Source: Candidatus Poseidoniaceae archaeon (lineage in GTDB: Archaea; Thermoplasmatota; Poseidoniia; Poseidoniales; Poseidoniaceae). From it: a DNA stretch of 64,000 bases. Under the pieces are notes generated by a model. The model did not search any database and had not been told where the DNA came from. It was given only the letters and a program-made list of their open reading frames with translations. The translations under genes were made by a program, and so were the position numbers. The stretch's first letter is position 1, and the number at the start of each line of letters is the position of its first letter. Of the stretch, positions 861-25,942 are shown one piece after another. The stretch lies in assembly GCA_943789275.1 (NCBI GenBank), contig CALSTM010000003.1, forward strand, positions 596,053 to 660,052. Reading direction: 5' to 3'.

Positions 861-1550
861 GTGATATGTATGGGTGGATTAAAAGCGAGCGGTGATATGC
901 GGTATTTTCAGATACGTATTCTGCATGAGCAAGCCCAGCATTTACCAGGGAATATCCTTACGAAGTTCTTCAGCAAAGTGGAAATGGTTACTGGAACTGG
1001 GGTTGTGGACTCCATCCCAACATGTATTCTCAGGGTAGAGCATGATGGCGTTGACATTAGGAAACTCAAAGATCAACTCAAGGGGAGTTTAATCATCGAT
1101 AAAATCCTCCAAGAAGGGGATGATTATGCCTACTTGAAAGCGAAAACTCCTGGACCGATTCAACTCATTATTGGGGCTGAAGAGGAAGCATGGATTATGC
1201 CACCATCGTATCTCTCCAGAGAAAGTGGTTTCTTTATGACCATACACGGCACGCCGAAAGGGCTGAAGAGAATCAAAGACAAATTAGAGGCATTGATTCC
1301 TGAAAAAATGGATATGCGAATTTCAAAACTGATTATCGGCGATTGGATGTCTGCTCCAAAACTGCCAAATAAGCGTTATTTAGCTATTAAAACTGCAGTT
1401 GATATGGGTTATTACAGCACTCCTCGAAGGTGCAATCAAAGCGATATTGCAGAAGTTTTGGGTGTTAAACAAGGAACCGTTGCAGAACATTTACACTTCG
1501 CTGAAAGCATAATCATCAATTCTTGGTCCGAGCAAACATCGAGTTCATAG
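861..1550 (+). CDS. Bat-type (bacterio-opsin-activator-like) HTH_10 DNA-binding transcription regulator.
   Basis: The C-terminal motif LPNKRYLAIKTAVDMGYYSTPRRCNQSDIAEVLGVKQGTVAEHLHFAESII matches the HTH_10 signature (LTxRQRExLxxAxxxGYFDxPRxxxxxELAxxLGISxSTxxxHLRxAE). The listed start is GTG, and an ATG lies 9 nt downstream. Confidence 0.6.
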   Translation: MICMGGLKASGDMRYFQIRILHEQAQHLPGNILTKFFSKVEMVTGTGVVDSIPTCILRVEHDGVDIRKLKDQLKGSLIIDKILQEGDDYAYLKAKTPGPIQLIIGAEEEAWIMPPSYLSRESGFFMTIHGTPKGLKRIKDKLEALIPEKMDMRISKLIIGDWMSAPKLPNKRYLAIKTAVDMGYYSTPRRCNQSDIAEVLGVKQGTVAEHLHFAESIIINSWSEQTSSS

Positions 1551-2399: not shown

Positions 2400-2870
2400 A
2401 TGAAATCACTCCTTCTTGCCGTGTTAATGGTCTCCATGTCCCTTTCTGTGGGCCTTGTGGAACTGAACAAAGCCCCTTGGCTTGTTGAAGACGGTGAAAG
2501 CGAACTTGAAGAGTTAAACAATCCCATGCACACAACCGCACCTTCGATTTCCTATTCCTCAAGCACACTCGCTCTTTCCAACAACACCGCTATGACGCCA
2601 GTGACAGCGACGAATTCAGGTGGTACGGTTGGAGTTCCGGTGGCAATAGAACTCAGTACCATCGATGAATGGCTGTCTTTAGCCCTTGATTCTGATGGAT
2701 ACAGGCATGTTTCCGCTGCCGACACCACCAGTAGTGATCTCATGTATGCGACCGACACCAGTGGGGCTTGGGTCAACATAACCGTTGATGCTCCAGGACA
2801 GGTCGGGGAATACAACTCAATCGCTGTTGATTCTGAAGACGTCGTGCATATTGCCTACTTCAGCCTATAA
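2400..2870 (+). CDS. N-terminal signal-peptide-bearing segment of giant surface protein 1. It is separated from the body by an apparent +1 frameshift at about 2865-2870.
   Basis: MKSLLLAVLMVSMSLSVGLVELN is an N-terminal signal-like hydrophobic segment. The segment ends with the repeat ...IAVDSEDVVHIAYFSL followed by a stop. The same repeat unit (..K..DLKYATC..) continues in frame +1 from about 2866. The upstream ORF-track start (2274) is TTG and lacks a signal peptide. Confidence 0.5.
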   Translation: MKSLLLAVLMVSMSLSVGLVELNKAPWLVEDGESELEELNNPMHTTAPSISYSSSTLALSNNTAMTPVTATNSGGTVGVPVAIELSTIDEWLSLALDSDGYRHVSAADTTSSDLMYATDTSGAWVNITVDAPGQVGEYNSIAVDSEDVVHIAYFSL

Positions 2871-5800
2871 GGATGATACGAACGCACTTACTCAAGACCT
2901 CAAGTACGCTACGTGCGCATCATCATGCGCATCAGCATCTTCATGGTCAAACATCACCCTTGACGCCACTGGTTTTGTAGGCGAGAGAACCTCCATCGCA
3001 GTTGATTCAAATGATGGAGTGCATATTTCCTACACCGATAATACCAACAATGCACTGAAGTATACCATGTGCTCCTCATCTTGTGGTACAGCATCTTCAT
3101 GGTCGAATGTTTCTGTTGACGATATAGGAACCGGTGATACTAAACCAACTGATATCGCGATTGATTCAAACGATGCAGTACACATTGCCTACCATTGGCA
3201 AGGAATCAGTAATCTCAACATACGATATGCCACGTGTACTACCTCGTGTGCATCGGCATCCTCATGGACAAACACATCAGGTATTAGCCTCAGCAACATA
3301 CACGATGTGGCACTCGCAATTGATTCAAACGACGCACTGCACATTGCTGGCTATGATTATGACAATAAGGATATCATTTACCTCGCATGTACCTCTTCAT
3401 GTACTTCTACCTCTTCATGGTCAAATATTAGCGCTGTTACCACTGGCGAAGTTGGTGCACGATTATCGATTGCAGTTGATTCTACGAATAACCCACACAT
3501 ATCCTATCAGGCTGGTGCGTGGGCCGTACATGTTGGTCTGCCCCTTGGATACGCCACTTGCACTTCATCGTGTCTAACTGCCTCAAGCTTTTGGACTCAC
3601 GGTACTGTTCATAGCGGCTCCGCCGTTTACACCTATGGTACATCAATTGCAGTCAATCATAACAACGATAGCGTACATATCGTCCATGGCAATTTGTTTT
3701 CCAAATTTTACTACCTCGGCTCAGACACTGCTCCATATACCGTAAGTCCCGACCTTCCAAGTGGTTTGAGTTTGGATTGGAGCAGCGGAAAAATTTCTGG
3801 GACACCGAGAGAACTCTCCACCTCCACGATCTACACCATTACCGCAAGAAATGCACATGGTTCGGATACCGCAACACTGACCATTTCGGTCAACGCACCA
3901 CCTTCGCTGTCCTACGATTTGGGTACAGGAAACAGCACTTCAGTCTATTCCAACAAACAGGTTGCTGCAGGATACCAACACACCTGCGCCATTCTTGACA
4001 ATGGTTCTGTGATGTGCTGGGGAGAGAATGGCCACGGACAGTTAGGCAATGGTGGAACAGGCGACGAACACATACCCGTTTGGGTTGATCTTGGCACGGA
4101 TAGGACCGCCGTTGCGATCACTGCTGGATACAGACACACCTGCGCCATTCTTGACAACGGTTCAGTTTCCTGTTGGGGACAGGGAATTTTTGGGCAATTA
4201 GGTAATGGAGGAACATCACAACAAACCTCACCAACGCTCACCAGCAGCCTTGGAACCGGCCGTACGGCCGTAGCGATCACTGCTGGATACAGTCACACCT
4301 GCGTCATTCTTGACAACGGTTCAGTTTCCTGTTGGGGAATCGGAAATAAAGGACACTTGGGTAACGGAGGTACATCACAACAAAACTCACCAACGCTCAC
4401 CAGCAGCCTTGGTACCGGCCGTACGGCCGTAGCGATTTCTGCTGGACAATATCACTCCTGCGCCATTCTTGACAGCGGTTCAGTTTCCTGTTGGGGGTAT
4501 GGAATTGAGGGACAATTGGGTAACGGAGGTACATCACAACAAAACTCACCAACACTCACCAGCAGCCTTGGAACCGGTCGTACGGCCGTAGCGATTTCTG
4601 CTGGAGGCATCCACACCTGTGCCATACTTGACAACGGTTCAGTCTCATGTTGGGGGGAGGGAAGTAAAGGACGATTGGGTAACGGAGGTACATCACAACA
4701 AAACTCACCAACGCTCACCAACAGCCTTGGAACCGGTCGTACGGCCGTAGCGATTTCTGGTGGAGCCAAACACACCTGCGCCATTCTTGACAGCGGTTCA
4801 GTCTCATGTTGGGGAGATGGAGCCATTGGCATACTGGGTGACGGGGGGACATCAGATCAACACTCACCAACGCTCACCAGCAGCCTTGGAACTGGCCGAA
4901 CGGCAGTTGCGCTTGAGAATGGACACGCCCACACCTGTGCCATTCTTGACGACGCTTCCATGAAGTGTTGGGGAAATGACAACAACAAGCAGTTAGGCAA
5001 TGGAGCCACAGGCAGCACCGGCGACCCACCCGTTTTGGTATCAGGCAGCCATACGTGGGACTCCACGATGATTTCAGGTTCATCAAGTACAGTTTACCTT
5101 GTACAGAATGCGCTTATGAGTTCACTTTCTCCAACGTTAGACGCTGGCTTCGGTGCACCCACTTCATGCAACCAAACAGGGCTACCTTCTGGCCTTTTAC
5201 TTAGCACCACATGCGTGCTCTCAGGAACACCGACAACGTTGGGCAGTACAACGCTGACAATTACCCCCTCGAATGCAGAAGGTAATGGTTCTGCAGCCAT
5301 TTTTATCGTCAATGTGAATGCTTCAGGTGGTTCAATCACCATCAACACAACCTCCACCGAAGGTGGCGTAGGCAGTGCCATCTCAGACATCACCATGTCG
5401 TATACACACACCGCCAGCATTCCAAATTGGGTCTCAGGTGTGACCAACAGCACAATTAATCCAGCCCCCTCAATTCCAGCCGGCGGGGGTTCAAAACTTT
5501 CAATCGATTCTGGTCTAAACGGAGACATCGCAGCTGTGTATTCAGTGGAGCGAACCGGCGCGACCTCAGCCAATCTCTCCTTGCTCTACAAGTGGAACGG
5601 GGCATGGACAGAGAGTACCATTGACAGCAGTGTCGATACGGAGGTTCCATCGGTTGCTATCGACCGACAGGGAGCACTTCACATCGGGTATGTCGATAAG
5701 GACAATGCCAAGTTGAAGTACGCCACCAATGCATCTGGGTCTTGGGTCGTTGAAACGTTGGGTGATGCAGCGACTCACCAATTTGCACAAACGGCAATTT

Positions 5801-8800
5801 CAGTGCATCCGGTCACAAATGCAATTCATATCATGGCCGTGAACGGATCGACCATCCCAACCGCAGGATTGAATCATCACACAAACGAAACAGGTACCTG
5901 GCTCTACTCAACCATTTCTGACCCATCAGAGGAAGAGGGATTCGGGGTTAATTTCGATATTGACTCAGATGGTAACCTGCATGTTGTTTTCCGAAGAGAA
6001 GCCAACAGTGTCACGACCCCTCACTATGACCACTTGATAATGGCCAGTCGAATAAACGGTGTTTGGCAAAACCAGACCATTGCAATCAATCTGATTAACG
6101 GTGCGTATGGACATCACTTTGACATGGCCATTGATTCACAAGATCAAATACACGTAACATATCAAGGTAACCTCAATCAAGGAAAATGGATTTGGCATGG
6201 CGTATTATCAAGTGTTAACCCAAGCAGTAGCTGGGTTTTAACTCAATTATCTACCTCAGGATTTTACCCAGCTTTGGCCGTCGATTCAAACGACAATGTG
6301 CACCTTTCTTATCACGGTGGTGCGGGCTGTCCAAGGATCAGTGGTACCAAACATACACCTCTGGAACGTGGAGTTCGACGAATCGAAACAAGCGCCACCG
6401 CCGGCAACATTCATGGGGGTTACTTCAATGAAATGACCACAGATTCCAATGATGATGTCTTTATATTTGCTTATGGGCAAGTGGTTTCCACTTGCAAAAG
6501 TTGTGACATTCGAATAACCAGAATTCAAGGTTTAGGACCAAGTCTTGCGACGAATCCGATTTTCGAGGTATCACCACCACTCCCAGACGGACTGAACATG
6601 AACTGGCACAACGGTACCATTTCTGGAACACCGACTGAAACCCACGCGAACACTACACACACCGTCACAGTGACTGCCTTTGGCGCAACCACAACTGAAA
6701 CATTCACACTTATGGTCATTGAAGCAGCCGATATTTCCTACGCAGGTTCACCGTTTACGTTCACCAAGAACACCGAAGTCGTTGGAGAAACACCAACCAA
6801 CGCTGGTGGAGCAGTCATCACATGGGCAATTCACCCGCCAGCATCTTCGCTACCAAACGGTCTCTTGTTTGGCCCATCCAACGGAACCATCTACGGTACA
6901 CCGACCACTGTGGTCTCTTCCGCCGTTACGTTCACCGTTTGGGCGAACAATTCGGCTGACAGCAATTCGACAACCATTTCGATCACCGTTCAAGACGAAG
7001 CTCCTGACATTTCGTATGCAGGTTCACCGTTTACGTTCACCAAGAACACGGAAGTTGTTGGAGAAACACCAACCAACGCTGGTGGTGCGGTAAGCACATG
7101 GGCAATTCACCCGCCAGCATCTTCGCTACCAAACGGTCTCTTGTTTGGCACATCCAACGGAACCATCTACGGAACACCGACCACTGTGGTCTCTTCAGCC
7201 GTTACGTTCACGGTTTGGGCGAACAATTCTGCCGATGATATTTCGACAACCATTTCGATTACTGTTCAAGATGAAGATGCTGACATTTCGTACGCAGGTT
7301 CACCGTTCACATTCACCAAGAACAGTCTTGTGAGCGGTGCAACGCCAACTAACGTTGGTGGCGCACCAGATGCATGGGCTATTGATCCAGAAATCTCTAC
7401 CACGATTCCAGGACTCTCGTTCAACACCGCAACGGGTGCTATCACCGGTACGCCAACAGGAGTACATTCGGCCACTATGTTCACCGTTTGGGCCAACAAT
7501 TCCGCAGGTGATATTTCGACAACCATTTCGATCACCGTTCAAGATGAAGATGCTGACATTTCGTACGCAGGTTCACCGTTCACGTTCACCAAGAACAGTC
7601 TTGTGAGCGGTGCAACGCCAACTAACGTTGGTGGCGCACCAGATGCATGGGCTATTGATCCAGAAATCTCTACCACGATTCCAGGACTCTCGTTCAACAC
7701 CGCAACGGGTGCTATCACCGGTACGCCAACAGGAGTACATTCGGCCACTATGTTCACCGTTTGGGCCAACAATTCCGCAGGTGATATTTCGACAACCATT
7801 TCGATCACCGTTCAAGATGAAGATGCTGACATTTCGTACGCAGGTTCACCGTTCACATTCACCAAGAACAGTCTTGTGAGCGGTGCAACGCCAACTAACG
7901 TTGGTGGCGCACCAGATGCATGGGCTATTGATCCAGAAATCTCTACCACGATTCCAGGACTCTCGTTCAACACCGCAACGGGTGCTATCACCGGTACGCC
8001 AACAGGAGTACATTCGGCCACTATGTTCACCGTTTGGGCCAACAATTCCGCAGGTGATATTTCGACAACCATTTCGATCACCGTTCAAGATGAAGATGCT
8101 GACATTTCGTACGCAGGTTCACCGTTCACATTCACCAAGAACAGTCTTGTGAGCGGTGCAACGCCAACTAACGTTGGTGGCGCACCAGATGCATGGGCTA
8201 TTGATCCAGAAATCTCTACCACGATTCCAGGACTCTCGTTCAACACTGCAACGGGTGCTATCACCGGTACGCCAACAGGAGTACATTCGGCCACTATGTT
8301 CACCGTTTGGGCCAACAATTCCGCAGGTGATATTTCGACAACCATTTCGATCACCGTTCAAGATGAAGATGCTGACATTTCGTACGCAGGTTCACCGTTC
8401 ACATTCACCAAGAACAGTCTTGTGAGCGGTGCAACGCCAACTAACGTTGGTGGCGCACCAGATGCATGGGCTATTGATCCAGAAATCTCTACCACGATTC
8501 CAGGACTCTCGTTCAACACCGCAACGGGTGCTATCACCGGTACGCCAACAGGAGTACATTCGGCCACTATGTTCACCGTTTGGGCCAACAATTCCGCAGG
8601 TGATATTTCGACAACCATTTCGATCACTGTGAACGACATTGCACCAGTTTTCACATATTCATCCCTCGAAGTGACATTAACCAATAATTCGGCGGTATCG
8701 CTCTTGCCAATCAGCACGGGCGGGGCGGTCACATCGTGGGAGTACGTAGGAACTGAACCACTCGGTTTGAACTTCGAAGGCGGAAATGGAACCATTTGGG

Positions 8801-11800
8801 GCACACCAACCGTTGTTCAATCGAAAACTCAATACTTGATTTGGGGGAACAATTCAGGTGGACAGCTTTTGGTTTACATGAACATCACCATTTCTGATGT
8901 GCCTGTTTCCTTGAGTTACACCTCTGACAATTACAACCTCACGCGTGCTGTCACAATGACAACGCCAATCAGTCCAGTTTACACTGGTATTGTTGATGCG
9001 TGGGGCATTGAACCTTCACCTACATTGGCGGGTCTCTCTTGGGATTCATCCACAGGTGTGATTTCAGGTACGCCAAACATCAACATGACCCGAACAGAAT
9101 ACACCGTTTGGGCAAACAATACCGGTGGTAACGTGTCTCATAAGTTCAACATCACCATCAACGAACCGATTGTGACCTTGGTCTACACTCCTGCGAGCGA
9201 AACCTTTGTTCGAGGTACGACAATCACCAACTGGCTCCCAACGGTGACCGGTGGAAACGTCGAAACTTGGGGCATTGAACCTTCAATTACGGGAACTGGT
9301 CTTTCGTTTGTCAACGGAGTGATTTCGGGTACACCGACCATCAACATGACCCAAGCCGATTACATCGTATGGGCCAACACGACCGGTGGCGAGACCAACT
9401 TTACCATCAGCATTACCATCAATGAACCGATTGTGACCTTGGTCTACACTCCTGCGAGCGAAACCTTTGTTCGAGGTACGACAATCACCAACTGGCTCCC
9501 AACGGTGACCGGTGGAAACGTCGAAACTTGGGGCATTGAACCTTCAATTACGGGAACTGGTCTTTCGTTTGTCAACGGAGTGATTTCGGGTACACCGACC
9601 ATCAACATGACCCAAGCCGATTACATCGTATGGGCCAACACAACCGGTGGCGAGACCAACTTTACCATCACCATCACCATCAATGAACCGATTGTGACCT
9701 TGGTCTACACTCCTGCGAGCGAAACCTTTGTTCGAGGTACGACAATCACCAACTGGCTCCCAACGGTGACCGGTGGAAACGTCGAAACTTGGGGCATTGA
9801 ACCTTCAATTACGGGAACTGGTCTTTCGTTTGTCAACGGAGTGATTTCGGGTACACCGACCATCAACATGACCCAAGCCGATTACATCGTATGGGCCAAC
9901 ACAACCGGTGGCGAGACCAACTTTACCATCACCATCACCATCAACGAACCTGGAGTCATCCTTGAGTACAATCCAGAAAATGTAATCGTCACAATTGGTG
10001 ACCCAATGACTGCGTTGACCCCAATTGTCAGCAACGGGAGCGTTGAGATATGGAGCATTTATCCCGAACTTGATAATGGATTGAACTTTGCAAACGGAAT
10101 CATCTCAGGAACGCCAACAAGCATTCAATCAAAACAAACCTACAAGATTTGGGCTAACAACACAGGCGGCAATACATATCACGATGTCAACATCACAATC
10201 CTTGACATCGTTCCTGAAATTTCCTACAGTCTCGTAAGCATTGACCTTACTAATGATACGACAAGCAGTGAGTTGCCTCTCTCCCCGAGTAACCTCGGCG
10301 GTCCAGTGGTGTCATGGTCGATTACGCCAGACCTCAGCCTTGGCTTGTCGTTTGACCCTGCAACCGGCGTCATCAGTGGAACACCCACTGAAGTCACAGC
10401 ACTTCGAGTCTACACCGTTACTGCAACAAATACAGGTGGAACGAGCACGACAGAGATTGAAATCACCGTTCTTGACCAAGTTCCGATGATTGCATACGTG
10501 CCTTCGGATGAAGTTCTGCTCTTGAACGAGAGTGTCCTGAACATGGTACCTGAATCCACGGGTGGAGCAATCACGGGCTGGTCAATCACACCTGAGCCAT
10601 CTGCTGGTTTGTTCTTTGACGCATCGACCGGTGTTTTCAGCGGTACGCCTACGGAGACAATGATTCGAACCCTGTACGAGATTACAGCAACAAATGATGT
10701 GGGAAGCATGACCGTTTCGGTTAACATCACCGTTGAAGATTTGAATTACAACCTCTCGCTTGGTCCGATTTATTTGCTCATTAATGAGGAAATGTTGAGT
10801 TTAGAACCGACATCAACCCTCTCTGATGCTGTCTATGAAGTCAGCCCAGATCTGCCTGATGGTCTCTTCCTTGGAGAAAGCAATGGAACCATTTGGGGCA
10901 CACCAACGGTTGGAATGCCTCTGACAAATTTCACCATCTATGCCAACAGCAGTTTGTTCAATGATGTGCTTGAAATCCAAATCGGAGTCCTAGAAGATTC
11001 AGATTCGGATGGAATGCCGAACCAACTGCCGCTTGGTTACAATCCACTCGGCGGTCTTACCGAAGACTTGGACGATGACGGTGACGGCTTCACTGATGCC
11101 GAGGAAAGCGAATGCGTTTCAGACGCATTGGATGCAGATTCAGCGCCAACCGACCTCGATGGCGATTCCATCTGCGACGCATTGGATGATGACGTCGACG
11201 GCGATGGCTTGTTGAATGATGTTGAAACAAACACCTCAACCTACGTGGATGAGAACGATACTGGAACCGACTCAATGAACGCTGACACCGACGGTGACGG
11301 CGTTTGCGATGGACCTCAAGTGCCAGCTAACGGCGGCTGCACCGCAGGACCAGATGTGTTCCCACTCGACCCTGCAGGCTCCGTTGACAGCGATGGTGAC
11401 GGCATGCCGGACACTTTGAACGGTGAATCCACCAGTTCACCACCTCTGGTCGAAGACCTCGATGACGACAACGACGCTTGGTCTGACGAGATGGAAGCAG
11501 CATGTGGAACGGACAGCGTCGATTCGAACAGTGTTCCTAGCGATGAAGACGCCGACGAAATCTGTGACAGCCTTGACACGAACCTGGACCTGCCGTTCAA
11601 CCTCACATACCCAACCGATACATTGACTGTAACATTAGGTGAAGAGATTTCAATCCTGCTTCCAAACCTCACCGGTTTGGGTGAAGTGTCTTCTTGGGAG
11701 ATTGAAGGTGAATTGCCCGAGGGATTGACCTTTGGCTGGAGTCCAGCAAGGGATGCTGCTCTTGACGGAAGTATACGTGGTACACCAACTGCAGTAATGT

Positions 11801-13092
11801 CTGCGACCGTCTTTACCATCTGGGCGAACAACTCTGCATACAGTCAATCGTTTGAACTTACGATTACTGTTCTCGAAGACCTCGTTCTTCCAAATGATGA
11901 TGGTGATGCTGGTGTTGATGAGGATGATGAGGACACCCCGCTGCTCCTCACTTGGGGTTACATCTGTTGCCCGTTGCTTCTTCTGCTTCTGCTGTCCGTC
12001 TTTATGTTGTTCTTCATCGGTGAAAAACAAGTCGTTATCGATGCTGAACCTTCAAACACTTTTGTAAAACCAGTTAGCAAAAGAGGCACAGGTACTCAAG
12101 AAGATCCTTTCGTATTGAAATCAATTGGAGGTCTCAAACCCGGTGGAAAAGCGAACAGCCATGAACGAATTACATTCGTCGGCTTGACAGTAGAGAGTAT
12201 TGAAATAATCGATTTGGAGCAAAAGAACAATGGAAATAAATTTTCCATGTTCATGCTCAAGCCAGCCTCCAGTGAAACGGGTGTTCGAATGCTTGGTATC
12301 GACGAGAATGTAGACACCACCATTGGCATGAGATTCGATGACAGTAAAGAAGAATCTTCCGTTAAGGGCGATGAATATTCAGCGTTGTTGAAAATTGGCA
12401 AATCCAGTGTTTACTTTTCTTGGACGGTGACGGTTAAACCGAGCAAGGTCAACAAAGTGAAGCCTAGAGAACCAATAGTGACGATTAAATCGACACAATC
12501 CATGTCCAAATCGGGTTCAATGAGTTCTTCTGAACCAAAGTCGTCCGTGGAGGAGAAGGCTGCAAAGGATGCTGAAGCTAAGGCTGCAAAGGATGCCAAA
12601 GCGCAAGCAGATGCGGATACTAAGGCGGCAAAGGAAGCCAAAGCGCAAGCAGATGCGGATGCTAAGGCGGCAAAGGAAGCCAAAGCGCAAGCAGATGCGG
12701 ATGCTAAGGCGGCGAAGGAACTCAAAGCACAAGCGGATTCAGAAGCCAAAGCAGTTAAAGAAGCCAGAGCCAAAGTCGACGAAGATGCTGCAGCTGTTGC
12801 CAAAAAGGCAGAAGAATTGGAACGTATCGCAAAGCGGGCTAAAAGTATTGATTTCGCTACGCTCGGTGTGGCTAACATCGGTGAAAAAGATGACCTGCAA
12901 GCCATCAAGGGCGTTGGTCCGTTCATCGGAGAAAAGTTGAATGCACTCGGCATCTTTACGTTTGAGCAAGTCGGAAACATGACGCCTGAAATTGAAGAAC
13001 AGGTCAACAAAGCGATTGAATTTTTCCCTGGCCGCGTTAAGCGAGACCAGTGGGCGAAGCAAGCAAGGCAACTTCATCATGATAAAAAGTGA
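2785..13092 (+). CDS. Body of giant secreted, membrane-anchored adhesin-like protein 1 (3435-aa ORF, ~3,600 aa with the N-terminal segment). It contains beta-propeller-like repeats, RCC1-like repeats, tandem Ig-like (He_PIG or cadherin-like) domains, TSP3-like Ca-binding repeats, a single TM helix, and a cytoplasmic tail with AK-rich repeats and an HhH-like domain.
   Basis: A single 10.3-kb ORF. The RCC1 signature HTCAILDNGSVSCWGxGxxGQLGNGG occurs seven times. LPxGLxFxxxxGxIxGTPT Ig-like units number more than 20. The acidic repeats include DxDxDGxxD (DTDGDGVCD). The hydrophobic helix is LLLTWGYICCPLLLLLLLSVFMLFFIG. The C-terminus is IKGVGPFIGEKLNALGIFTFEQV...FFPGRVKRDQW. Confidence 0.85.
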   Translation: MMLQDRSGNTTQSLLILKTSCILPTSAYKDDTNALTQDLKYATCASSCASASSWSNITLDATGFVGERTSIAVDSNDGVHISYTDNTNNALKYTMCSSSCGTASSWSNVSVDDIGTGDTKPTDIAIDSNDAVHIAYHWQGISNLNIRYATCTTSCASASSWTNTSGISLSNIHDVALAIDSNDALHIAGYDYDNKDIIYLACTSSCTSTSSWSNISAVTTGEVGARLSIAVDSTNNPHISYQAGAWAVHVGLPLGYATCTSSCLTASSFWTHGTVHSGSAVYTYGTSIAVNHNNDSVHIVHGNLFSKFYYLGSDTAPYTVSPDLPSGLSLDWSSGKISGTPRELSTSTIYTITARNAHGSDTATLTISVNAPPSLSYDLGTGNSTSVYSNKQVAAGYQHTCAILDNGSVMCWGENGHGQLGNGGTGDEHIPVWVDLGTDRTAVAITAGYRHTCAILDNGSVSCWGQGIFGQLGNGGTSQQTSPTLTSSLGTGRTAVAITAGYSHTCVILDNGSVSCWGIGNKGHLGNGGTSQQNSPTLTSSLGTGRTAVAISAGQYHSCAILDSGSVSCWGYGIEGQLGNGGTSQQNSPTLTSSLGTGRTAVAISAGGIHTCAILDNGSVSCWGEGSKGRLGNGGTSQQNSPTLTNSLGTGRTAVAISGGAKHTCAILDSGSVSCWGDGAIGILGDGGTSDQHSPTLTSSLGTGRTAVALENGHAHTCAILDDASMKCWGNDNNKQLGNGATGSTGDPPVLVSGSHTWDSTMISGSSSTVYLVQNALMSSLSPTLDAGFGAPTSCNQTGLPSGLLLSTTCVLSGTPTTLGSTTLTITPSNAEGNGSAAIFIVNVNASGGSITINTTSTEGGVGSAISDITMSYTHTASIPNWVSGVTNSTINPAPSIPAGGGSKLSIDSGLNGDIAAVYSVERTGATSANLSLLYKWNGAWTESTIDSSVDTEVPSVAIDRQGALHIGYVDKDNAKLKYATNASGSWVVETLGDAATHQFAQTAISVHPVTNAIHIMAVNGSTIPTAGLNHHTNETGTWLYSTISDPSEEEGFGVNFDIDSDGNLHVVFRREANSVTTPHYDHLIMASRINGVWQNQTIAINLINGAYGHHFDMAIDSQDQIHVTYQGNLNQGKWIWHGVLSSVNPSSSWVLTQLSTSGFYPALAVDSNDNVHLSYHGGAGCPRISGTKHTPLERGVRRIETSATAGNIHGGYFNEMTTDSNDDVFIFAYGQVVSTCKSCDIRITRIQGLGPSLATNPIFEVSPPLPDGLNMNWHNGTISGTPTETHANTTHTVTVTAFGATTTETFTLMVIEAADISYAGSPFTFTKNTEVVGETPTNAGGAVITWAIHPPASSLPNGLLFGPSNGTIYGTPTTVVSSAVTFTVWANNSADSNSTTISITVQDEAPDISYAGSPFTFTKNTEVVGETPTNAGGAVSTWAIHPPASSLPNGLLFGTSNGTIYGTPTTVVSSAVTFTVWANNSADDISTTISITVQDEDADISYAGSPFTFTKNSLVSGATPTNVGGAPDAWAIDPEISTTIPGLSFNTATGAITGTPTGVHSATMFTVWANNSAGDISTTISITVQDEDADISYAGSPFTFTKNSLVSGATPTNVGGAPDAWAIDPEISTTIPGLSFNTATGAITGTPTGVHSATMFTVWANNSAGDISTTISITVQDEDADISYAGSPFTFTKNSLVSGATPTNVGGAPDAWAIDPEISTTIPGLSFNTATGAITGTPTGVHSATMFTVWANNSAGDISTTISITVQDEDADISYAGSPFTFTKNSLVSGATPTNVGGAPDAWAIDPEISTTIPGLSFNTATGAITGTPTGVHSATMFTVWANNSAGDISTTISITVQDEDADISYAGSPFTFTKNSLVSGATPTNVGGAPDAWAIDPEISTTIPGLSFNTATGAITGTPTGVHSATMFTVWANNSAGDISTTISITVNDIAPVFTYSSLEVTLTNNSAVSLLPISTGGAVTSWEYVGTEPLGLNFEGGNGTIWGTPTVVQSKTQYLIWGNNSGGQLLVYMNITISDVPVSLSYTSDNYNLTRAVTMTTPISPVYTGIVDAWGIEPSPTLAGLSWDSSTGVISGTPNINMTRTEYTVWANNTGGNVSHKFNITINEPIVTLVYTPASETFVRGTTITNWLPTVTGGNVETWGIEPSITGTGLSFVNGVISGTPTINMTQADYIVWANTTGGETNFTISITINEPIVTLVYTPASETFVRGTTITNWLPTVTGGNVETWGIEPSITGTGLSFVNGVISGTPTINMTQADYIVWANTTGGETNFTITITINEPIVTLVYTPASETFVRGTTITNWLPTVTGGNVETWGIEPSITGTGLSFVNGVISGTPTINMTQADYIVWANTTGGETNFTITITINEPGVILEYNPENVIVTIGDPMTALTPIVSNGSVEIWSIYPELDNGLNFANGIISGTPTSIQSKQTYKIWANNTGGNTYHDVNITILDIVPEISYSLVSIDLTNDTTSSELPLSPSNLGGPVVSWSITPDLSLGLSFDPATGVISGTPTEVTALRVYTVTATNTGGTSTTEIEITVLDQVPMIAYVPSDEVLLLNESVLNMVPESTGGAITGWSITPEPSAGLFFDASTGVFSGTPTETMIRTLYEITATNDVGSMTVSVNITVEDLNYNLSLGPIYLLINEEMLSLEPTSTLSDAVYEVSPDLPDGLFLGESNGTIWGTPTVGMPLTNFTIYANSSLFNDVLEIQIGVLEDSDSDGMPNQLPLGYNPLGGLTEDLDDDGDGFTDAEESECVSDALDADSAPTDLDGDSICDALDDDVDGDGLLNDVETNTSTYVDENDTGTDSMNADTDGDGVCDGPQVPANGGCTAGPDVFPLDPAGSVDSDGDGMPDTLNGESTSSPPLVEDLDDDNDAWSDEMEAACGTDSVDSNSVPSDEDADEICDSLDTNLDLPFNLTYPTDTLTVTLGEEISILLPNLTGLGEVSSWEIEGELPEGLTFGWSPARDAALDGSIRGTPTAVMSATVFTIWANNSAYSQSFELTITVLEDLVLPNDDGDAGVDEDDEDTPLLLTWGYICCPLLLLLLLSVFMLFFIGEKQVVIDAEPSNTFVKPVSKRGTGTQEDPFVLKSIGGLKPGGKANSHERITFVGLTVESIEIIDLEQKNNGNKFSMFMLKPASSETGVRMLGIDENVDTTIGMRFDDSKEESSVKGDEYSALLKIGKSSVYFSWTVTVKPSKVNKVKPREPIVTIKSTQSMSKSGSMSSSEPKSSVEEKAAKDAEAKAAKDAKAQADADTKAAKEAKAQADADAKAAKEAKAQADADAKAAKELKAQADSEAKAVKEARAKVDEDAAAVAKKAEELERIAKRAKSIDFATLGVANIGEKDDLQAIKGVGPFIGEKLNALGIFTFEQVGNMTPEIEEQVNKAIEFFPGRVKRDQWAKQARQLHHDKK
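3960..5010 (+). repeat. Seven RCC1-like (beta-propeller blade) repeats of about 150 bp each, encoded within giant gene 1.
   Basis: Recurring xHTCAILDxGSVxCWGxxxxGQLGNGGTSQQNSPTLTSSLGTGRTAVAIxAG. Several copies share long identical nucleotide runs (for example acggttcagtttcctgttgggg). Confidence 0.75.
6724..8635 (+). repeat. Seven tandem 273-bp (91-aa) Ig-like domain repeats. The last five (7271-8635) are nearly identical at nucleotide level.
   Basis: The protein unit DADISYAGSPFTFTKNSLVSGATPTNVGGAPDAWAIDPEISTTIPGLSFNTATGAITGTPTGVHSATMFTVWANNSAGDISTTISITVQDE occurs five times. Spurious antisense and alternate-frame ORFs recur with an exact 273-nt period (7266, 7539, 7812, 8085, 8358) and identical translations. 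Confidence 0.9.
9163..9945 (+). repeat. Three near-identical tandem repeats of about 261 bp (87 aa), each encoding an Ig-like domain.
   Basis: EPIVTLVYTPASETFVRGTTITNWLPTVTGGNVETWGIEPSITGTGLSFVNGVISGTPTINMTQADYIVWANTTGGETNFTI(S/T)ITIN occurs three times. The nucleotide copies are visibly identical. Confidence 0.85.
12590..12720 (+). repeat. About three tandem copies of a 60-bp repeat encoding the Ala/Lys-rich unit AKEAKAQADADAKAAK in the cytoplasmic tail of giant protein 1.
   Basis: The string gcaaaggaagccaaagcgcaagcagatgcggatgctaaggcggca repeats three times with a 60-nt period. Confidence 0.8.
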
Positions 13093-13177: not shown

Positions 13178-13501
13178 ATGAGAGGGGACGCCGTAGGTAT
13201 GCCTCTCTTTCAATCGGGCCACTCTGCTGTGTTGAACAGAAAGTCCATCAAGTCAATTTGGCTTGCAGTTTTGATGGTTTCAATGTCGCTTTCTGTTGGC
13301 ATCGTTGAATTGAACCGGACACCGTTGGTAGATGCCATTGGTGTAGCAAGTGTTGGAGCAGGCTGTGCGTTTATCACTCGGGCCAGCGGCGAGGCAATCT
13401 ATGTCGATCCGGTCAACGGTTCGGATGCTTGGGACGGCACCTGGTCGTGTCCAAAAGCAACACTTTCCGATGCTCTGAACGACTCCATTTCAGAACGATG
13501 A
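13178..13501 (+). CDS. N-terminal signal-peptide segment of giant locus 2. It ends at a stop and continues in frame +1.
   Basis: The signal peptide ...KSIWLAVLMVSMSLSVGIVELN matches that of gene 1. YVDPVNGSDAWDGTWSCPKATLSDALNDS is the usual N-terminal lead-in of right-handed beta-helix proteins. The continuation (ND)EIVLYSGRYHENVTVDG lies in the next frame from about 13479. Confidence 0.5.
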   Translation: MRGDAVGMPLFQSGHSAVLNRKSIKSIWLAVLMVSMSLSVGIVELNRTPLVDAIGVASVGAGCAFITRASGEAIYVDPVNGSDAWDGTWSCPKATLSDALNDSISER

Positions 13502-16500
13502 AATCGTACTGTACAGCGGGCGGTATCACGAAAACGTCACTGTTGATGGCAAGGACAACCTTCTGATTCGTGCAGCCGATGGAGCCCGTGTTGTCTTTGA
13601 CGGTACTCGAAGCATTACTGAAGATTTAGGTGGTGTTTGGGGTGCAGCCGACAGCGATGGAATCCAAGAAGTCACTTTGCCTGTTGATGGCTGGCAACTG
13701 TTCCTTGCCTACGAAGAACAAGTTCCTGCTCGATGGCCAAATGCCCAATTCTCTGATGAAACGGTCTTCAATCGTTCGTACTGGGCTGAAGGCACATTGA
13801 CCGGTTCAAACAATGCCTACACGCAAGGCTGGTTGACAGATGCTGGTCCTGAAACAGGTGTTCACACAGGCCTCAATGAAACAATTAACGCCACAGGCCT
13901 CGACCCTGAAGGGGCTATTGCGGTGATGAACCTCGGTTCGTTCCGCTCCAACAGCCGTGTCATCACCGATTGGAATTCGGCCAACGGGACGTTTGCATAC
14001 GATGGCACTGGCGTAGGTTGGAAAACCAAGCATCACGCTTACTTCCTTGAGGGCAAGCGAGAACTCATCGATGTCGATGGTGAATGGTGGTTCAACAATG
14101 CAATCAACCGCCTGCATTACAAAACGCCAAGCGGGCAGAATGCAAACAATTTGGATTTGCGTGTCAAGGTACAACCGTTTGCGATGAGCGTTGAAAACTC
14201 CGACGGCGTGACCATCCAAGGCCTCGATTTCTTTGGAACGACGGTCAACTTCAACGAATGCGATGGATGCAGTTTCACCAATTCGACCCTCGAATATCCA
14301 AGCACCTCAAAGCGTGGATTGGGTATTGCCGGCGAATCAGAAGATGACCGTTGGATGACACGTTTCTATCGTTCAACCAACTCGTTTGTCGACAACATTT
14401 CCATCACCAACACCGACGGTGGCGCTCTTGAATTCCAAGGGTCTGCGGGTCAGTCGCACAACAACACGGTGAACAATTCCTACTTCCACGCCATCGACTG
14501 GTCAGCTGCCGACCAGAAAGGACTGATGGTCACAATTTACGAGGGAGGCCGAGACATGTACTTCACCAACAACACCGTTCACTTGACCGGGGCTTCATCC
14601 GTACTCTCCATTGGTGATGCGCCCAAGGTGTTCTACAACGAAGTCTGGGATGTTGGGCATTTGCAAACTGATGGCGCTGTTGTTCAGATCATGCAAGGTG
14701 AGGCCCCAGGTGCTGAAGTTGCTCACAACTGGATTCATGACATCATCAAGTACGGTGCCCGGTTTGATGCACCCATTGGAGAAGCGGGAGAAGGCCGGAA
14801 TGGAACCATGCATCACAATGTCATTTGGAATGTAACGGGCGGTTTGATGGTTAAGGGGGACTATCACGACGTCCACAACAACACGGTGTTCAATTCCTCA
14901 GATGGCAAAAATGACATCATTGCCCTCACCGATGGCGAGATCAACAACAAAAATTCGACGTTTCACCGCAATGCGGTGGATAAGATGGCCGACCATCGCT
15001 CAGGCTCATGGTCGCTTTATCCACTTCCCGCTGGGACGTATTGGAACAACTGGAACGGCTACGTCAACACCACGGATACGGTTTGGAATCAACTGGTTGA
15101 CCCTGCCAATTACGATTTCAGACCGAAGACCAACTCCCATCTTGACAACATGAGTGCGGGTGCATACGATGCTGGTGTGAGCAATCCGTGGACGGCCGGT
15201 ATTTCTTGGACATACACGACGCCCGATGCACCGGTCGAAGGGTGTATGCTCGATTATGCTGACAACTACGATGCAGACGCCACGCTATCAGACGGCTCGT
15301 GCTCCTTCGCATCGTATACGCCACCGGCCACGCTCGACCTCCGTCTCCATCTTGACCCAACCAACAGCAGTTCCTACAGCGGCAGCGGCACCAACGTCGC
15401 TGACCTTTCTGGGTTCAACAACTACGGAACCGTCGCCGCCGCTGGACCGACATGGGACGGCGATTTCACACGCTTCTCCTACGATGGGGCGTGCACTGGC
15501 TCGACCCCGAACCTGGTTTGCGATGAGATCGAAGTTTCTGACTCAACGAGCTTGCGCCCGGGCGGAAACGACTGGTCGGTATCAGTTTGGTTCAACGCCT
15601 CAACGCACCAACACAGCGTGATACTCGGCGCCTTCGACGACGGAGGGGCAGCAGTGGATGTTGGATGGGCCATCCGAATGAGAGCATCAGGTGGCATCTA
15701 TGCAAATGTGGGAACCACTTCCAACAATTCGGCCGCATGGACGTCAGAAGCATCCATCGATACGGACCGCTGGTATCACGTGGTCTTGGTTGCAGACCCG
15801 GGAAATACCCTCAGACTCTATGTTGATGGGCAAAACGTCGGAAGCGGTTCCTTGTCTGGAAGTGGAGCCCTGCGCAATGTAAGCAACAGCCTCTTCATCG
15901 CCTCCTACAACGGCGGTGAATATTCTCAGACCTTTGATGGACAAGTTGGTTCCGTCATGGCCTTTGCCGATGCACTCAACGCCACCACCATCAATCAAAT
16001 CTACAATGCAAGCAAGGGTGTGTACAGCAACACGACCACCCTGTCCTTCCCTCAATCTTCACCGACCTTGCTCCTCGGTCAAACATACAGTTTCCCCATG
16101 ACTGTCGCCAACGGTGAGATCACGACGTCCTATTCGCTCACGGGAACCTTGCCAAGCGGCATGAATTTCGAATCGAGCAACGGTACGATTTGGGGAACGC
16201 CAACGGCGGCTATGTCAACCACGAGCTACACCGTGACGGCCAACAACTCAGCCGGCACCTACTCGACCTCGTTCTCGTTGACATCGCAACATGCGGCACC
16301 GTACGATTTGGCCTACGCGCCAGAGAACATGACCCTTGAGAAGGGTACGGCCATGACGACCAACACGCCGAGTGTGAGCGGGGGCGCCATCACATCTTGG
16401 GAAATCAACCCCTCCGTGCCAACTGGACTTTCCTTTAGCACCTCAACCGGTGCCATCAGTGGTACGCCTTACGTGTTGCAAACAACAGCAACCACGTACA

Positions 16501-19500
16501 CGATATGGGCCAACAATTCAGGCGGAAATGCTTCAGCACAGGTCAACATCACCATCAACGATGAAGTGCCGATTATTTCCTATTCGTATGATGACATTAC
16601 CGGTACCAAGAGCGTGGCCATCAGCCCCCATTCTGGTCCAACTACGAGCGGTGGGACCATCACCTCATGGGAGATTTCACCATCACCAGGTTCTGCGTTC
16701 CACTTTAATTCCGCAAATGGCTACATCAGCGGAACTCCGGGGATTCTTCTGGCTAGAACCCAATACACCATTTGGGCCAACAATTCAGGTGGTTCGTCCG
16801 TTGCCTATGTCAACGTGACCATCAACGATGCAGCGCCGAACGCGTTGGGTTATTCTCCAGAAAATATGACACTCGAGAAGGATACAGCGATGACGCCGAA
16901 CCTTCCTTCGGTCAGTGGTGGAACCATCACGTCATGGGAAATCAGTCCTTCTCTGCCGAGCGGTCTGACATGGGGGGCCTCGGATGGGAAAATCAGTGGA
17001 ACACCCGCCGTTCTGCAAACGACGACGGTTACGTACACGATTTGGGCCAACAACTCAGGTGGTTCAGATTCCGCTCAAGTGAACATCACCATCAACGACC
17101 AACTCGCATCTGCAACCTATCCTTCAACCGTTGAAGTATCCAACGACCGAGCGATGACGACGGTCTCGCCGACCGTCACCGGTGGAGCGGTCATCTCGTG
17201 GGTCATCGTGCCTTCACTCTCCTCAGGCCTCAATTTCGGTAGTAGCAACGGAAGCATCTGGGGCACGCCAACAGGATTGTTGGAGAACGCCACCTACACC
17301 GTCTATGCGAACAACAGCGGCGGTTCAACCAGCATTACCTTCACGCTCGGGCTCAACTGGACGCTGACGCCAAGTGCCGAGGGTGCCTTCATCACCCGCA
17401 ACAGTTCCATTGCCAGCGACATCACGTGGGAATGGGATTACGATCCGCTTGAAGCTCAGAACCTTTCATTGGTGACTGGAGAATGGAACACCTGTGCCCT
17501 TGATAGCAATCAAAACGTGTTTTGTTGGGGACGAAACGGCAACGGTCAAATCGGCAACGGACAAACTGGAACGTCTGGTTGCGGTACATCAGGCCACAAG
17601 TGCAAGGACATTCCAACAGCAACGAACGATTTGGGCTCGGACGTGATCTCCCTTGCCTTTGGCCACCAGCATGCATGTGGCTTGCTTGACACTGGTGCCG
17701 TGAAGTGTTGGGGCCGAAACAATGCAGGGCAACTTGGAACCAGCGGTGGAGACAAGGATACGCCTCAAACCATCAATCTCGGGTCAGGGCGAACCGCTAC
17801 GAGCATCTACGCCGGTGGCCACTACACCTGCGCCATCCTCGATGACGCCTCCGTCAAGTGCTGGGGGGAGAATGGGAACGGTCAACTCGGTATTGGTTCA
17901 AACTCGAACGCCAACACACCGACCACCATTAACACCCTCGGGTCAGGTCGCACGGCTATTTCTTTAGCAACCGCCATGAGTGCAGTCTGTGCCCTCCTCG
18001 ATGACGGTTCAGTCAAGTGTTGGGGAGCCTCCGCAAATGGCCAGTTAGGCAATGGGGGTACCAGTTCAAATCTGAAGAGTCCACCTGCATCTGCAATTAA
18101 CCTCGGAACCGGCCGTACTGCAAAAGCCATCACAGGTGGCGAATCCCATTTCTGCGCCATCCTCGATGACGATTCCATCAAGTGTTGGGGCAATGGATTC
18201 AATGGGAAACTAGGAACCGGGACAACTTCCCACAGATCAACACCAACCTCAACCAGCGGAAGTTTCGCTACAGGTCGCTATGCGGTCGCCATTGACGCTG
18301 GCTACGATCACACCTGTGCCATTCTCGATAACGGCCAACTCACATGCTGGGGTTCTGATTCTGATGGCCAACTGGGTAACGGCGCTACCACGGGTACGAA
18401 ATCATCGATTCAATCCACAACCGTCACTCTTGGGTCGGGACGAACGGCCATTTCGCTTTCTGCAGGTGGAGAGCACACCTGTGCGCAACTGGACAATGGA
18501 CAACTCAAGTGCTGGGGGAATCGAGCAGACGGTCAAGTTGGCGACAACGGGAATTTCAACAATCCGTCCGATCGCACGAGCCCTTCCTCCGTATCCAACA
18601 ACAACCACGGCGGATATACCTATCTCAATACGGGCGTCATGCCTTCTTCCGCTGTTACTGGCGCTACCTGCGAGATCTCGCCTTCCCTCCCAACCGGCCT
18701 CAGTTTGACCGCCGGCACCTGCACCATCACCGGCACACCGACCGCTACAGCCAGCAACGCCACCTACACCATTTGGGCCAACGTTTCCGGCACATCGTAC
18801 AGCGGTCAAATCTGGCTTGAAGTCGGTTTGAATGCACCGGACATTTCCTATTCGTCTTCGACCTATACCTACACCAAGGACATAGAAATTTTCACGCTCA
18901 ACCCAACCAACGTCGGTGGCGAAGTGACAACTTGGGCCATCAACGCAACGTTGCCATCAGGCCTTACATTCGAGACCAGTAACGGTACAATTTGGGGCAC
19001 ACCGGACACGATTACGGCATCAACCACCTACACGGTATGGGCGAACAATTCCGCTGATTCAGATTCCTTCACCATCACGTTCACCGTAAACGATGCTACT
19101 CCGAATTTCTATTACGGCAGCGCAAGCGGTGGAGGCGCACACACACTTGTCCTCTATCTGGATCAGACCATGAATCCACTCACGCCGACCCAGGCATCCG
19201 GGGGTGGAGCGATCACTTCGTGCAGCAGTTCACCATCACTGCCTTCTGGGCTGTCGTTGAGTTCAACATGTGTCCTTTCAGGAACACCTGATGCAACCGC
19301 TACCGGGGCCTTCTACACCATCACAGGAACCAACACAGGCGGTAGCGATACAGCATCGTTGTACATCGAAATCCGCTCCTATGGTGGAACATTGAGCGTG
19401 ACACCAAGCAACACTGAAGGCAGCGTGAACAGTTCCATCTCAGACATCACGATGTCCTATGCGCATCAAATCAGCAACTACGGTTGGACATCTGGTGTAA

Positions 19501-23309: not shown

Positions 23310-23508
23310 TGTGGCTTACTTTGGTCAACAAACATCTTCTGGAATTTTCTCGCTCTATGCTTACAATGCTTCAAATGCGACGCTATGGATGGTTTCAGGG
23401 AGTAATGCTAATCGTGGTGTTGCTGTAACTATTGACGGTGTATTGTATGGTAGTCGTGGTCTACAGTTCTCTTCCAGGTGGCTCTACACTCTGGGCGCAC
23501 AACCCTAA
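23173..23508 (+). CDS. Short frame-shifted fragment of giant locus 2 carrying kelch-like LYAYNASNATLWMVSG repeats.
   Basis: It continues the xLWAHNxSNGTxW repeat family seen at the end of the preceding ORF and the start of the following one. Confidence 0.35.
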   Translation: MCLWQSSVTVVPTVVRHGRTTSATGHLGASQSYMMHTTAGAQVIGDVAYFGQQTSSGIFSLYAYNASNATLWMVSGSNANRGVAVTIDGVLYGSRGLQFSSRWLYTLGAQP

Positions 23509-25891: not shown

Positions 25892-25942
25892 TGACGCTCA
25901 AGACGTTCACAATTTCGGCGAGCAATAGCGGCGGTTCAGTCA

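Follow-up and report, generated by a model that had tools for sequence, protein, structure and literature searches.

Architecture of the locus

We analysed a 64,000-nt stretch of contig CALSTM010000003.1 from Candidatus Poseidoniaceae archaeon (the window, whose positions serve as coordinates throughout), and describe here a giant gene at 2400-13092 on the + strand. Its product is a type I single-pass surface protein, N-out and C-in, whose cytoplasmic tail ends in a helix-hairpin-helix (HhH) module of the COG3743 family. We found the following features along the gene, including immunoglobulin-like (Ig-like) domains, a transmembrane (TM) helix and, in the tail, a conserved domain that we call domain X.

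2400-2866, + strand: N-terminal piece in frame A, with the signal peptide (MKSLLLAVLMVSMSLSVGLV) and the first propeller-like repeats (translation, hydropathy)
2867, + strand: surplus A that shifts the frame and makes a TAA at 2868-2870 (DNA alignment against contigs L020, L021 and L022)
2868-13092, + strand: remainder of the giant gene in frame B, an open frame to the TGA; minus the surplus A, codon CTT (2865, 2866, 2868) leads into it
2962-3684, + strand: propeller-like block 1, repeats of the type SIAVDSNDxVHISY...YATC.SSC (motifs at aa 71, 124, 177, 229 and 288)
3937-5019, + strand: seven-bladed RCC1-like propeller (Pfam WD40_RLD and RCC1_2; tandem period of 159 nt over 4108-4958)
5422-6429, + strand: propeller-like block 2, AIDxxGxxHI motifs (at aa 957 and 1114)
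6487-10959, + strand: He_PIG Ig-like array of ~17 domains, some of them near-identical tandem copies (Pfam He_PIG, GxIxGTP motifs)
10987-11499, + strand: acidic DxDxDG (thrombospondin-type-3-like) repeats, putatively Ca-binding (six motifs)
11602-11874, + strand: last He_PIG-like domain, before the membrane (Pfam He_PIG E = 8.6e-4, aa 242-329 of the segment)
11941-12021, + strand: single TM helix (LLLTWGYICCPLLLLLLLSVFMLFFIG), aa 3053-3079, the sole strong hydropathy peak in the main frame
12022-12450, + strand: domain X, ~140 aa, a conserved cytoplasmic juxtamembrane Ig-like beta-sandwich with no curated family
12451-12546, + strand: Ser/Lys-rich connector (KPSKVNKVKPREPIVTIKSTQSMSKSGSMSSSEPKSS), probably disordered (read from the sequence)
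12547-12843, + strand: Ala/Lys/Asp/Glu spacer of 99 aa with 14-aa repeats (Tandem Repeats Finder (TRF), composition)
12814-13089, + strand: C-terminal COG3743/PhaH-type (HhH)2 module of 92 aa

An earlier sequence-only reading had described a single gene of about 3,600 aa. The size holds, as the repaired protein has a length of ~3,563 residues, but in the window the gene is not one intact open reading frame (ORF), being split at 2867. The main frame comprises 3,435 open codons (2785-13092, + strand, with the TGA stop at 13090-13092), and the start ATG at 2400 (MKSLLLAVLMVSMSLSV...) lies in a different frame, which by translation stops at 2868-2870; the two frames become one only after deletion of one base. 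With the repaired N-terminus as a query against metagenome contigs, we found 8 related loci, 3 of them at 87-97% aa identity. In L020, L021 and L022 the reading runs uninterrupted across the junction (...VVHIAYYSLKDDTN... / ...VVHIAYYSLKDDTNALTQDLKYATC...), and DNA alignment with these contigs reveals one surplus A at position 2867 of the window (AGCCT[A]TAAGG), a base that is absent from all three. Furthermore, the N-terminal piece (2400-2866) is 97% identical to the start of the unbroken gene in L020.

Because these three contigs read through 2867 without the surplus A, the gene is intact in relatives. An old pseudogene is argued against by the 3,435 open codons downstream, together with the housekeeping genes that we checked at 34-46 kb, which match their Pfam profiles over nearly full length; on the evidence of the same genes, we rejected poor assembly in general as the cause of the frameshift. 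Two origins are left for the surplus A: an error in the sequence or assembly, or a mutation of very recent date.

A modular ectodomain

The signal peptide of the sequence-only reading is present, but in a frame separate from the main ORF, and its region coincides with a hydropathy peak at aa 42-47 of the N-terminal ORF. It is best explained as a Sec-type signal that exports a ~3,180-residue acidic ectodomain rich in Cys and sequons. This ectodomain is built largely from repeated domains of recognisable families. He_PIG (PF05345) is matched in Pfam with an E-value of 2e-97 and 320 bits against a cut-off of 24, and families of the RCC1-like propeller (PF25390, PF00415 and PF13540, that is, WD40_RLD, RCC1 and RCC1_2) are above threshold, with WD40_RLD at 319.9 bits against a cut-off of 150 (E 3.4e-95). 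The seven RCC1 blades read earlier from the sequence correspond to seven RCC1_2 stretches, and the propeller-like IAIDSNDxVHISY repeats are likewise borne out, with seven motifs of the '[IV]A[IV]DSNDxVHI' ('IAIDSNDxVHI') type in two blocks; no Pfam family matched either block.

Other parts of the earlier description needed correction. The Ig-like array is large, as had been said, but the number falls short of the more than 20 domains claimed: we counted 19 units by the GxIxGTP motif, and 14 stretches are above the Pfam per-stretch limit. In the acidic region at 10987-11499 the six DxDxDG motifs are there, but TSP3_bac (PF18884) scores 14 bits against a Pfam cut-off of 25, so that the term 'thrombospondin-3-like' refers here to the DxDxDG motif; homologues have a precomputed PF18884 match. 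The last He_PIG-like domain, just upstream of the TM helix, is kept in all homologues.

Some of the He_PIG units are tandem copies (TRF: 273 nt x 5.2 at 99% identity; 261 nt x 3.1 at 98%), and the near-identical copies lie at 7206-8627 and 9146-9950 on the + strand. Such near-identity points to recent duplication or gene conversion, and the copy number may be mis-assembled. On its domain types, the ectodomain probably forms a long adhesive fibre, and Rinke et al. have linked 'thrombospondin' genes of Poseidoniales to adhesion (PMC6461757).

A single membrane helix and a cytoplasmic tail

The single hydropathy peak at 11941-12021 is followed by 356 aa, in agreement with the one TM helix and ~350-aa cytoplasmic tail of the sequence-only reading. 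The two sides of this helix differ strongly in composition. Over 25 aa on each side, the net charge is -11 for the N-flank and +1 for the C-flank, and the more positive flank is the inner one in 59 of the 65 homologues with enough upstream sequence. The ectodomain has a pI (isoelectric point) of 4.05, 36 cysteines, 66 N-x-S/T sequons and 2.2% K+R, and the tail a pI of 6.1-9.0 depending on the part, no cysteine, one sequon and 16.9% K+R. Given the N-terminal signal peptide and the single TM helix, together with this asymmetry in charge, cysteines, sequons and K+R content, the tail is cytoplasmic, and all topology indicators agree on this. The characterised carriers of the COG3743 module are also all cytoplasmic or located on the cytoplasmic face of the membrane (PMC12079452). 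The asymmetry led us to reject an extracellular or wall-binding tail; the terminal module is no known extracellular or wall-binding domain.

Domain X, a conserved domain beneath the membrane

The conserved domain noticed in the tail by the sequence-only reading is domain X. Among 26 sequences it has 17 invariant columns, including the motifs GPEPENT, GxGTxxDPF and SVYFSW, and it is present in all relatives, starting within a few residues of the TM helix; neither Pfam nor NCBIfam holds a family for it. We rejected a PEP-CTERM-like meaning of the conserved GPEPENT, as the motif stands after the TM helix and not before it. Domain X appears to resemble cytosolic ASH/MSP-type Ig domains, and the PapD-like fold was compared as well.

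In an exhaustive profile search with domain X over 1.84 billion representatives, 345 proteins passed E <= 1e-3, of which 130 also passed E <= 1e-10. In one group (group A), a TM helix stands directly upstream, the domain is near the C-terminus of proteins of up to ~2,900 aa, and what comes after it is either 1-4 HhH modules or a short polybasic end. In the other (group B, with members P0154, P0175, P0207, P0212 and P0214), there is no TM helix, and the module belongs to long proteins, in which it lies close to the N-terminus or forms tandem arrays (x2-5). Because the two groups match each other in a profile-profile comparison (hhalign) at 99.9% probability and E 3e-32, domain X belongs to a wider unnamed module family, apparently common to archaeal cytoplasmic tails and virion-type proteins. 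Two matches make up the viral link: P0154 matches phage virion-structural and tail-fibre PHROGs (phrog_19943 and phrog_24898), and among the viral structures of BFVD the domain X model is best matched by a protein of Synechococcus phage S-CBWM1 (23% identity, E 7.7e-7). A tblastn search against GenBank phages found no group B relatives of domain X on viruses, and IMG/VR scans with P0154 and P0212 as queries gave no match.

A variable spacer

Domain X is followed by the Ser/Lys-rich connector, which is not conserved among homologues, and then by the spacer. The AK-rich repeats claimed for this part of the tail are present, but with a period of 14 aa (42 nt) and not of 20 aa; TRF gives 4.1 copies over 12568-12738. 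The spacer contains 39 A, 21 K and 23 D/E, only 7 large hydrophobic residues and neither G nor P, and has 22 opposite-charge pairs at i/i+4. From this composition we infer that it may form a single long helix; complete helicity would give it a length of ~15 nm. In a set of 146 relatives, between 7 and 290 residues (median 122) separate domain X from the first HhH, and such variation in length is what one would expect of a spacer.

The terminal module belongs to the COG3743 family

The HhH-like module that the sequence-only reading had placed at the end of the tail is an (HhH)2 domain of the COG3743 family, as found by NCBIfam profiles, a PDB sequence search and an AlphaFold2 (AF2) model. The last ~75 residues match the C-terminal ends (the last ~70 positions) of alphaproteobacterial NCBIfam profiles, namely NuoE (E 3.6e-18), S2 (1.5e-13), L21 (1.6e-10) and the phasin PhaH (1.4e-8), the last of which (NF045508) aligns with module residues 19-82. 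In the PDB, the search returned the C-terminal domains of 8yy9_O (1.4e-12) and 9wqv_a (6e-12); counted in the alignment, identity to these Urf1 chains is ~42% over 73 residues. The AF2 model has a mean predicted local distance difference test score (pLDDT) of 89.9 and a predicted template modelling score (pTM) of 0.82, and its best solved-structure matches are (HhH)2 domains. With E-values that run from 1e-8 to 1e-55, the tail modules are not chance matches.

In 17 diverse copies of the module, G33, G35, P36, R74, W80 and Q83 are invariant, and G73, D78 and A84 are conserved in at least 90%. These residues fall in two hairpins, hxxhxGhGP... and ...PGR..RD.W..QA, and the same residues align in the bacterial Urf1 proteins.

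Database entries for homologues carry the label COG3743, 'predicted flap endonuclease-1-like 5' DNA nuclease'. This name is misleading because neither Pfam nor NCBIfam finds a nuclease domain in the tail, which has only the H3TH/HhH-like part; with no catalytic domain, we rejected a nuclease function. A UvrB_inter match in the Pfam search of the tail was also discarded as spurious.

The tail is shared by giant proteins across Poseidoniales

Next, we examined related genomes for the same tail on other giant proteins, as the sequence-only reading had suggested, and found it at 17 loci. All of them belong to Poseidoniales (Poseidoniaceae and one Thalassarchaeaceae) and were found in a cassette scan of one genome per GTDB species; they include the published marine group II (MG-II) genome CM001443.1. 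The order is the same in all 17: acidic repeats or He_PIG, TM helix, domain X, linker and HhH, and the longest of the open frames exceeds 3,545 codons. The scan used a 9-sequence subset of domain X, the full 26-sequence alignment being too diverse, and the locus count is too low because the scan depended on one peptide pattern, SVYFSWTV. The protein search with the tail likewise returned proteins of Poseidoniales (marine group II) only.

Many of the matches to the tail are 'proteins' of 500-650 aa that start at or near the TM helix (among entries P0002-P0120). Two of these entries lie on long contigs (L001 and L002), each directly behind an RCC1/He_PIG gene and with overlapping gene calls; P0007 is the direct continuation of the RCC1/He_PIG gene in L001, the two being separated by a frameshift that falls within a DDDNDG...CGSNP motif (L001 9700-10150). 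Because of the overlapping calls in both contigs and the break inside a motif in L001, we consider the short entries to be fragments of giant genes and rejected a stand-alone family of 500-650-aa proteins (TM helix, domain X and two or three HhH).

Across families, the HhH module is the best conserved part of the cassette. In the set of 146 proteins that combine domain X and HhH, single-copy tails number 39, two-copy tails 27, three-copy tails 74 and four-copy tails 6, counts that are biased by fragments and clustering. Collectively, these results establish the architecture of the tail, its fold and family membership, its topology indicators and its Poseidoniales-wide conservation. Giant surface proteins throughout Poseidoniales thus commonly have this cassette, with its 1-4 copies of HhH, as their C-terminal anchor.

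Neighbouring giant genes

Two further genes of the window carry parts of the same cassette.

1-591, + strand: end of an upstream gene cut by the window edge, with two COG3743 modules (translation; profile matches at 49-273 and 316-582)
32576-33121, + strand: end of a second giant gene, with a TM helix (32576-32641), domain X (32645-33088) and a polybasic end (KMKPKKNPRKKSGKKSK) (translation; profile match 3.1e-40)

The upstream gene copy at 1-591 passes the Pfam Cdd1 threshold, with 31.6 bits. In its tail a ~60-aa segment (…GKDGNALTGVKGVTRVFGTATVVMVKDD…) precedes the first COG3743 module, and this segment recurs before the penultimate module in the multi-copy tails of P0056, P0070, P0074, P0075 and P0114; the ~60-aa insert has no Pfam match.

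The second giant gene (13178-33121, + strand) encodes a signal peptide near-identical to that of the first, an RCC1 propeller, a Laminin_G_3 domain and numerous He_PIG domains. Breaks at ~13501, 23309, 25891, 27331 and 30431-30521 divide it into at least 6 frames. Its last piece lacks an HhH module and has acidic repeats ahead of the TM helix; P0163, a protein of a different assembly, shares this end and is uninterrupted where the window gene breaks at 30431-30521. K/S-rich polybasic ends take the place of HhH after domain X in this gene and in P0160, P0163, P0210 and P0217. In the window, frameshifts are concentrated in the giant genes, and the checked housekeeping genes look intact.

Two HTH_10-type regulators are encoded at 861-1550 (+), between two giant genes, and at 43529-44371 (+). 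A LysE-type exporter lies at 1545-2375 on the opposite (-) strand, just upstream of the first giant gene.

What the tail may bind

We tentatively favour, at a little less than even confidence, the hypothesis that the Poseidoniales giant surface protein is an envelope-to-nucleoid tether acting via its COG3743 module. Under this hypothesis, the two conserved hairpins of the terminal module (G-V-G-P and P-G-R) would bind DNA with no preference for sequence. The inner end of the surface protein would thereby be tied to the nucleoid, which lies near the membrane in these small cells; such a tether would keep the fibres anchored and distributed and would, in return, fasten the nucleoid to the envelope. 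Domain X could act as a stopper or scaffold beneath the membrane.

The model for this hypothesis is PhaH of Caulobacter. According to a review of organelle positioning (PMC13052382, citing Salinas et al. 2023), the N-terminus of PhaH sits on polyhydroxybutyrate (PHB) granules and its C-terminal HhH binds DNA non-specifically; the review also reports that PHB granules lose their order upon phaH deletion. PhaH is described as positioning the granules on the nucleoid (see also PMC12678847). The sequence-only reading had suggested that the tail tethers to nucleic acid, and this idea gains support from the membership of the module in the COG3743 family together with the reported DNA binding of PhaH, but for the archaeal tail itself both DNA binding and nucleoid tethering are extrapolated from these bacterial data.

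Three further observations are consistent with DNA as the ligand. The residues of both hairpins are invariant or nearly so in the 17 copies compared. As archaeal and bacterial copies are ~42% identical on unrelated carriers, a universal ligand such as DNA would be well suited. Furthermore, the recurrent replacement of HhH by a polybasic end after domain X mirrors the HhH and histone-like alternatives seen in PHB-granule tethers: in Halomonas PhaC2, COG3743 is present in one protein where another has a histone-H1-like DNA-binding tail (PMC8686332).

Several points weigh against the tether. DNA binding by the archaeal copies would follow from that of bacterial PhaH, which we take from two secondary citations (PMC13052382 and PMC12678847), and those who solved the RC-LH1 structures called the function of the COG3743 domain obscure (PMC12079452). 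The module is not basic (pI 6.1, net charge -1), and its matches to the HhH families HHH_5 (PF14520, 17.4 against 27 bits) and Cdd1 (PF11731, 16.5 against 25.5 bits) are both sub-threshold. For polybasic ends beside the membrane, the ligand could be acidic lipids instead of DNA. In the window a frameshift at 2867 interrupts the gene, and the topology was judged from hydropathy, charge and composition. Finally, the closest solved folds of the module are NusA AR1/AR2, which are protein-binding (HhH)2 domains.

The last of these points leads to the best placed of the rival explanations, although we regard it as doubtful: the module would be a protein-protein domain, as in NusA AR1/AR2, that docks a cytoplasmic partner (cytoskeletal, secretion, quality-control or signalling) or self-clusters, for anchoring or for inside-out or outside-in signalling. 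A near-neutral to acidic pI of 6.1 fits this explanation, the 1-4 copies per tail suit multivalent scaffolding, and the ASH/MSP-type Ig domains that domain X appears to resemble are protein-interaction modules. A lineage-specific partner, however, is argued against by the ~42% identity to alphaproteobacterial copies carried by NuoE, S2, L21, Urf1 and PhaH. The GhG hairpins, which are typical of HhH motifs that bind a nucleic-acid backbone, show no variation. Beside the cassette genes at the loci examined, we saw no conserved gene that could encode a partner, and the sole relative with a reported function, PhaH, is reported to bind DNA (PMC13052382). For the inside-out signalling proposed in the sequence-only reading, we found no specific support.

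Less probable is a mainly mechanical and biogenesis role, in which domain X and the charged spacer form a cytoplasmic stopper that fixes the topology and keeps a single TM helix from being pulled out under load, and the distal module or polybasic end sticks to the inner leaflet and not to DNA. Domain X is the sole tail element common to the HhH-ended and the polybasic-ended forms, polybasic ends are classic binders of acidic lipids, and in giant bacterial adhesins of the LapA type folded retention modules serve as plugs, which offers a parallel. A spacer of 7-290 residues that keeps the end off the membrane nevertheless fits membrane binding poorly, and archaeal and bacterial lipids differ, yet the module is ~42% identical across both domains of life.

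Quite improbable, in our view, is a tail that binds RNA or ribosomes, for example by holding translating ribosomes or mRNAs at the membrane, near the site where these very long proteins are exported. HhH domains in general bind nucleic-acid backbones, and the same module ends alphaproteobacterial S2 and L21; on these two proteins, however, it is an appended extra domain and not the ribosome-binding part. Standing at the extreme C-terminus, the module is made last and cannot help to target its own nascent chain, and the only ligand reported is DNA (PMC13052382). The ribosome tethering that the sequence-only reading had raised thus found no specific support.

That the tail is extracellular, that its HhH end is a separate gene joined by misassembly or that the locus is a dead pseudogene is hardly credible and already contradicted, for although the gene is frameshifted at 2867 and the tail stands as separate 500-650-aa proteins in many database entries, the frame is unbroken from He_PIG through the TM helix to the stop in the window and at 17 genome loci, the short proteins are gene-call fragments from frameshifts or contig ends, relatives read through 2867 ahead of the 3,435 open codons, and the charge, Cys and sequon asymmetry puts the tail inside.

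Comparison with known systems

Among the closest known systems is PhaH, which shares the C-terminal COG3743-type HhH and the reported arrangement of an N-terminal part on a large structure with the HhH as tether. Unlike the archaeal protein, PhaH is a small soluble bacterial PHB-granule protein without signal peptide, TM helix, ectodomain or domain X.

Another parallel comes from bacterial Urf1 proteins. Protein-O (Urf1) of the Dinoroseobacter shibae reaction centre-light-harvesting 1 (RC-LH1) complex (8YY9 chain O) has an N-terminal TM hairpin, a long flexible loop and a C-terminal COG3743 domain that is not resolved in the map (PMC12079452), and Urf1/protein-3h of Rhodovulum sulfidophilum (9WQV chain a) gives the same picture (PMC13066640). 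As in the giant protein, a membrane anchor is joined by a long flexible linker to a compact C-terminal COG3743 domain on the cytoplasmic side; unlike the giant protein, Urf1 lacks an ectodomain and is anchored by a small N-terminal TM hairpin within RC-LH1.

The extensions of NuoE, S2 and L21 (PRK12373, PRK12311 and PRK12278) end in the same module, which follows low-complexity Ala/Lys/Glu/Pro-rich linkers, but their carriers are bacterial cytoplasmic subunits of respiratory or ribosomal complexes. PhaM, PhaF and AlgP have Lys-rich histone-H1-like C-terminal tails that act as non-specific DNA tethers and are interchangeable with HhH (PMC13052382). They parallel the polybasic ends that replace HhH after domain X; the Poseidoniales ends, however, are K/S-rich, span only ~15-25 residues and could bind lipids instead.

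With SiiE, LapA/RTX adhesins and Embp, the archaeal protein has in common a multi-thousand-residue chain of Ig-like domains with Ca-binding motifs, presumed to be extended for attachment. These bacterial proteins are exported by a type I secretion system (T1SS) or by the sortase route and held in the outer membrane or cell wall, and none is known to have a single TM helix with a folded cytoplasmic tail of nucleic-acid type. Eukaryotic integrins and cadherins offer an analogy only: these type I proteins expose an ectodomain of Ca-dependent repeats and connect through their cytoplasmic tail to a scaffold inside the cell, but there is no homology, and their tails bind actin-cytoskeleton adaptor proteins, not DNA. 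Among archaea, PGF-CTERM/archaeosortase proteins combine a surface glycoprotein-like ectodomain with a C-terminal hydrophobic helix. In that system the helix is the last element but for a short basic end, and it is removed as the protein receives its lipid anchor, whereas our protein has 356 residues after its TM helix and no PGF motif before it, and thus lacks this sorting signal.

In the literature searched, we found no description of an HhH tail on Poseidoniales surface proteins. The earlier claim of an undescribed architecture holds to that extent, but the module itself is known and widely fused, and both the module family and the logic of anchor, linker and COG3743 are already known in bacteria (PhaH, Urf1/protein-O). 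New, as far as we found, are the COG3743 module on giant single-pass archaeal surface proteins, the unnamed domain X and the family-wide conservation of the cassette in Poseidoniales.

Implications for Poseidoniales

Marine group II are the most abundant planktonic archaea of surface oceans and have never been cultured (PMC6461757). The cytoplasmic cassette on their largest proteins represents a family-wide fibre anchor that is unlike the PGF-CTERM, surface-layer (S-layer) and bacterial adhesin routes. It also calls for corrected annotations, both of the misleading nuclease name and of the 500-650-aa database 'proteins', and it defines two targets for recombinant work, the 92-aa HhH module and the 140-aa domain X.

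If the module binds DNA as reported for PhaH, it would provide an envelope-to-nucleoid link in archaea, and would suggest that the COG3743 module, whose function on NuoE, S2, L21 and Urf1 continues to be described as obscure, has a general role as a nucleoid tether for large assemblies. Taken further, a direct axis from the cell exterior to the chromosome, in which the fibres grip the nucleoid via a tunable spacer and 1-4 HhH or a polybasic end, is possible, if on balance unlikely. Were it true, the chromosome would be an internal scaffold that anchors and spaces the fibres, and the position or segregation of the nucleoid could respond to attachment forces or to the state of the surface; the unnamed family of domain X, apparently common to tail-fibre-like proteins of viruses as well, would add another new element to the system. 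By analogy with PhaH, abundant archaea of the ocean may thus link their surface fibres to their DNA.

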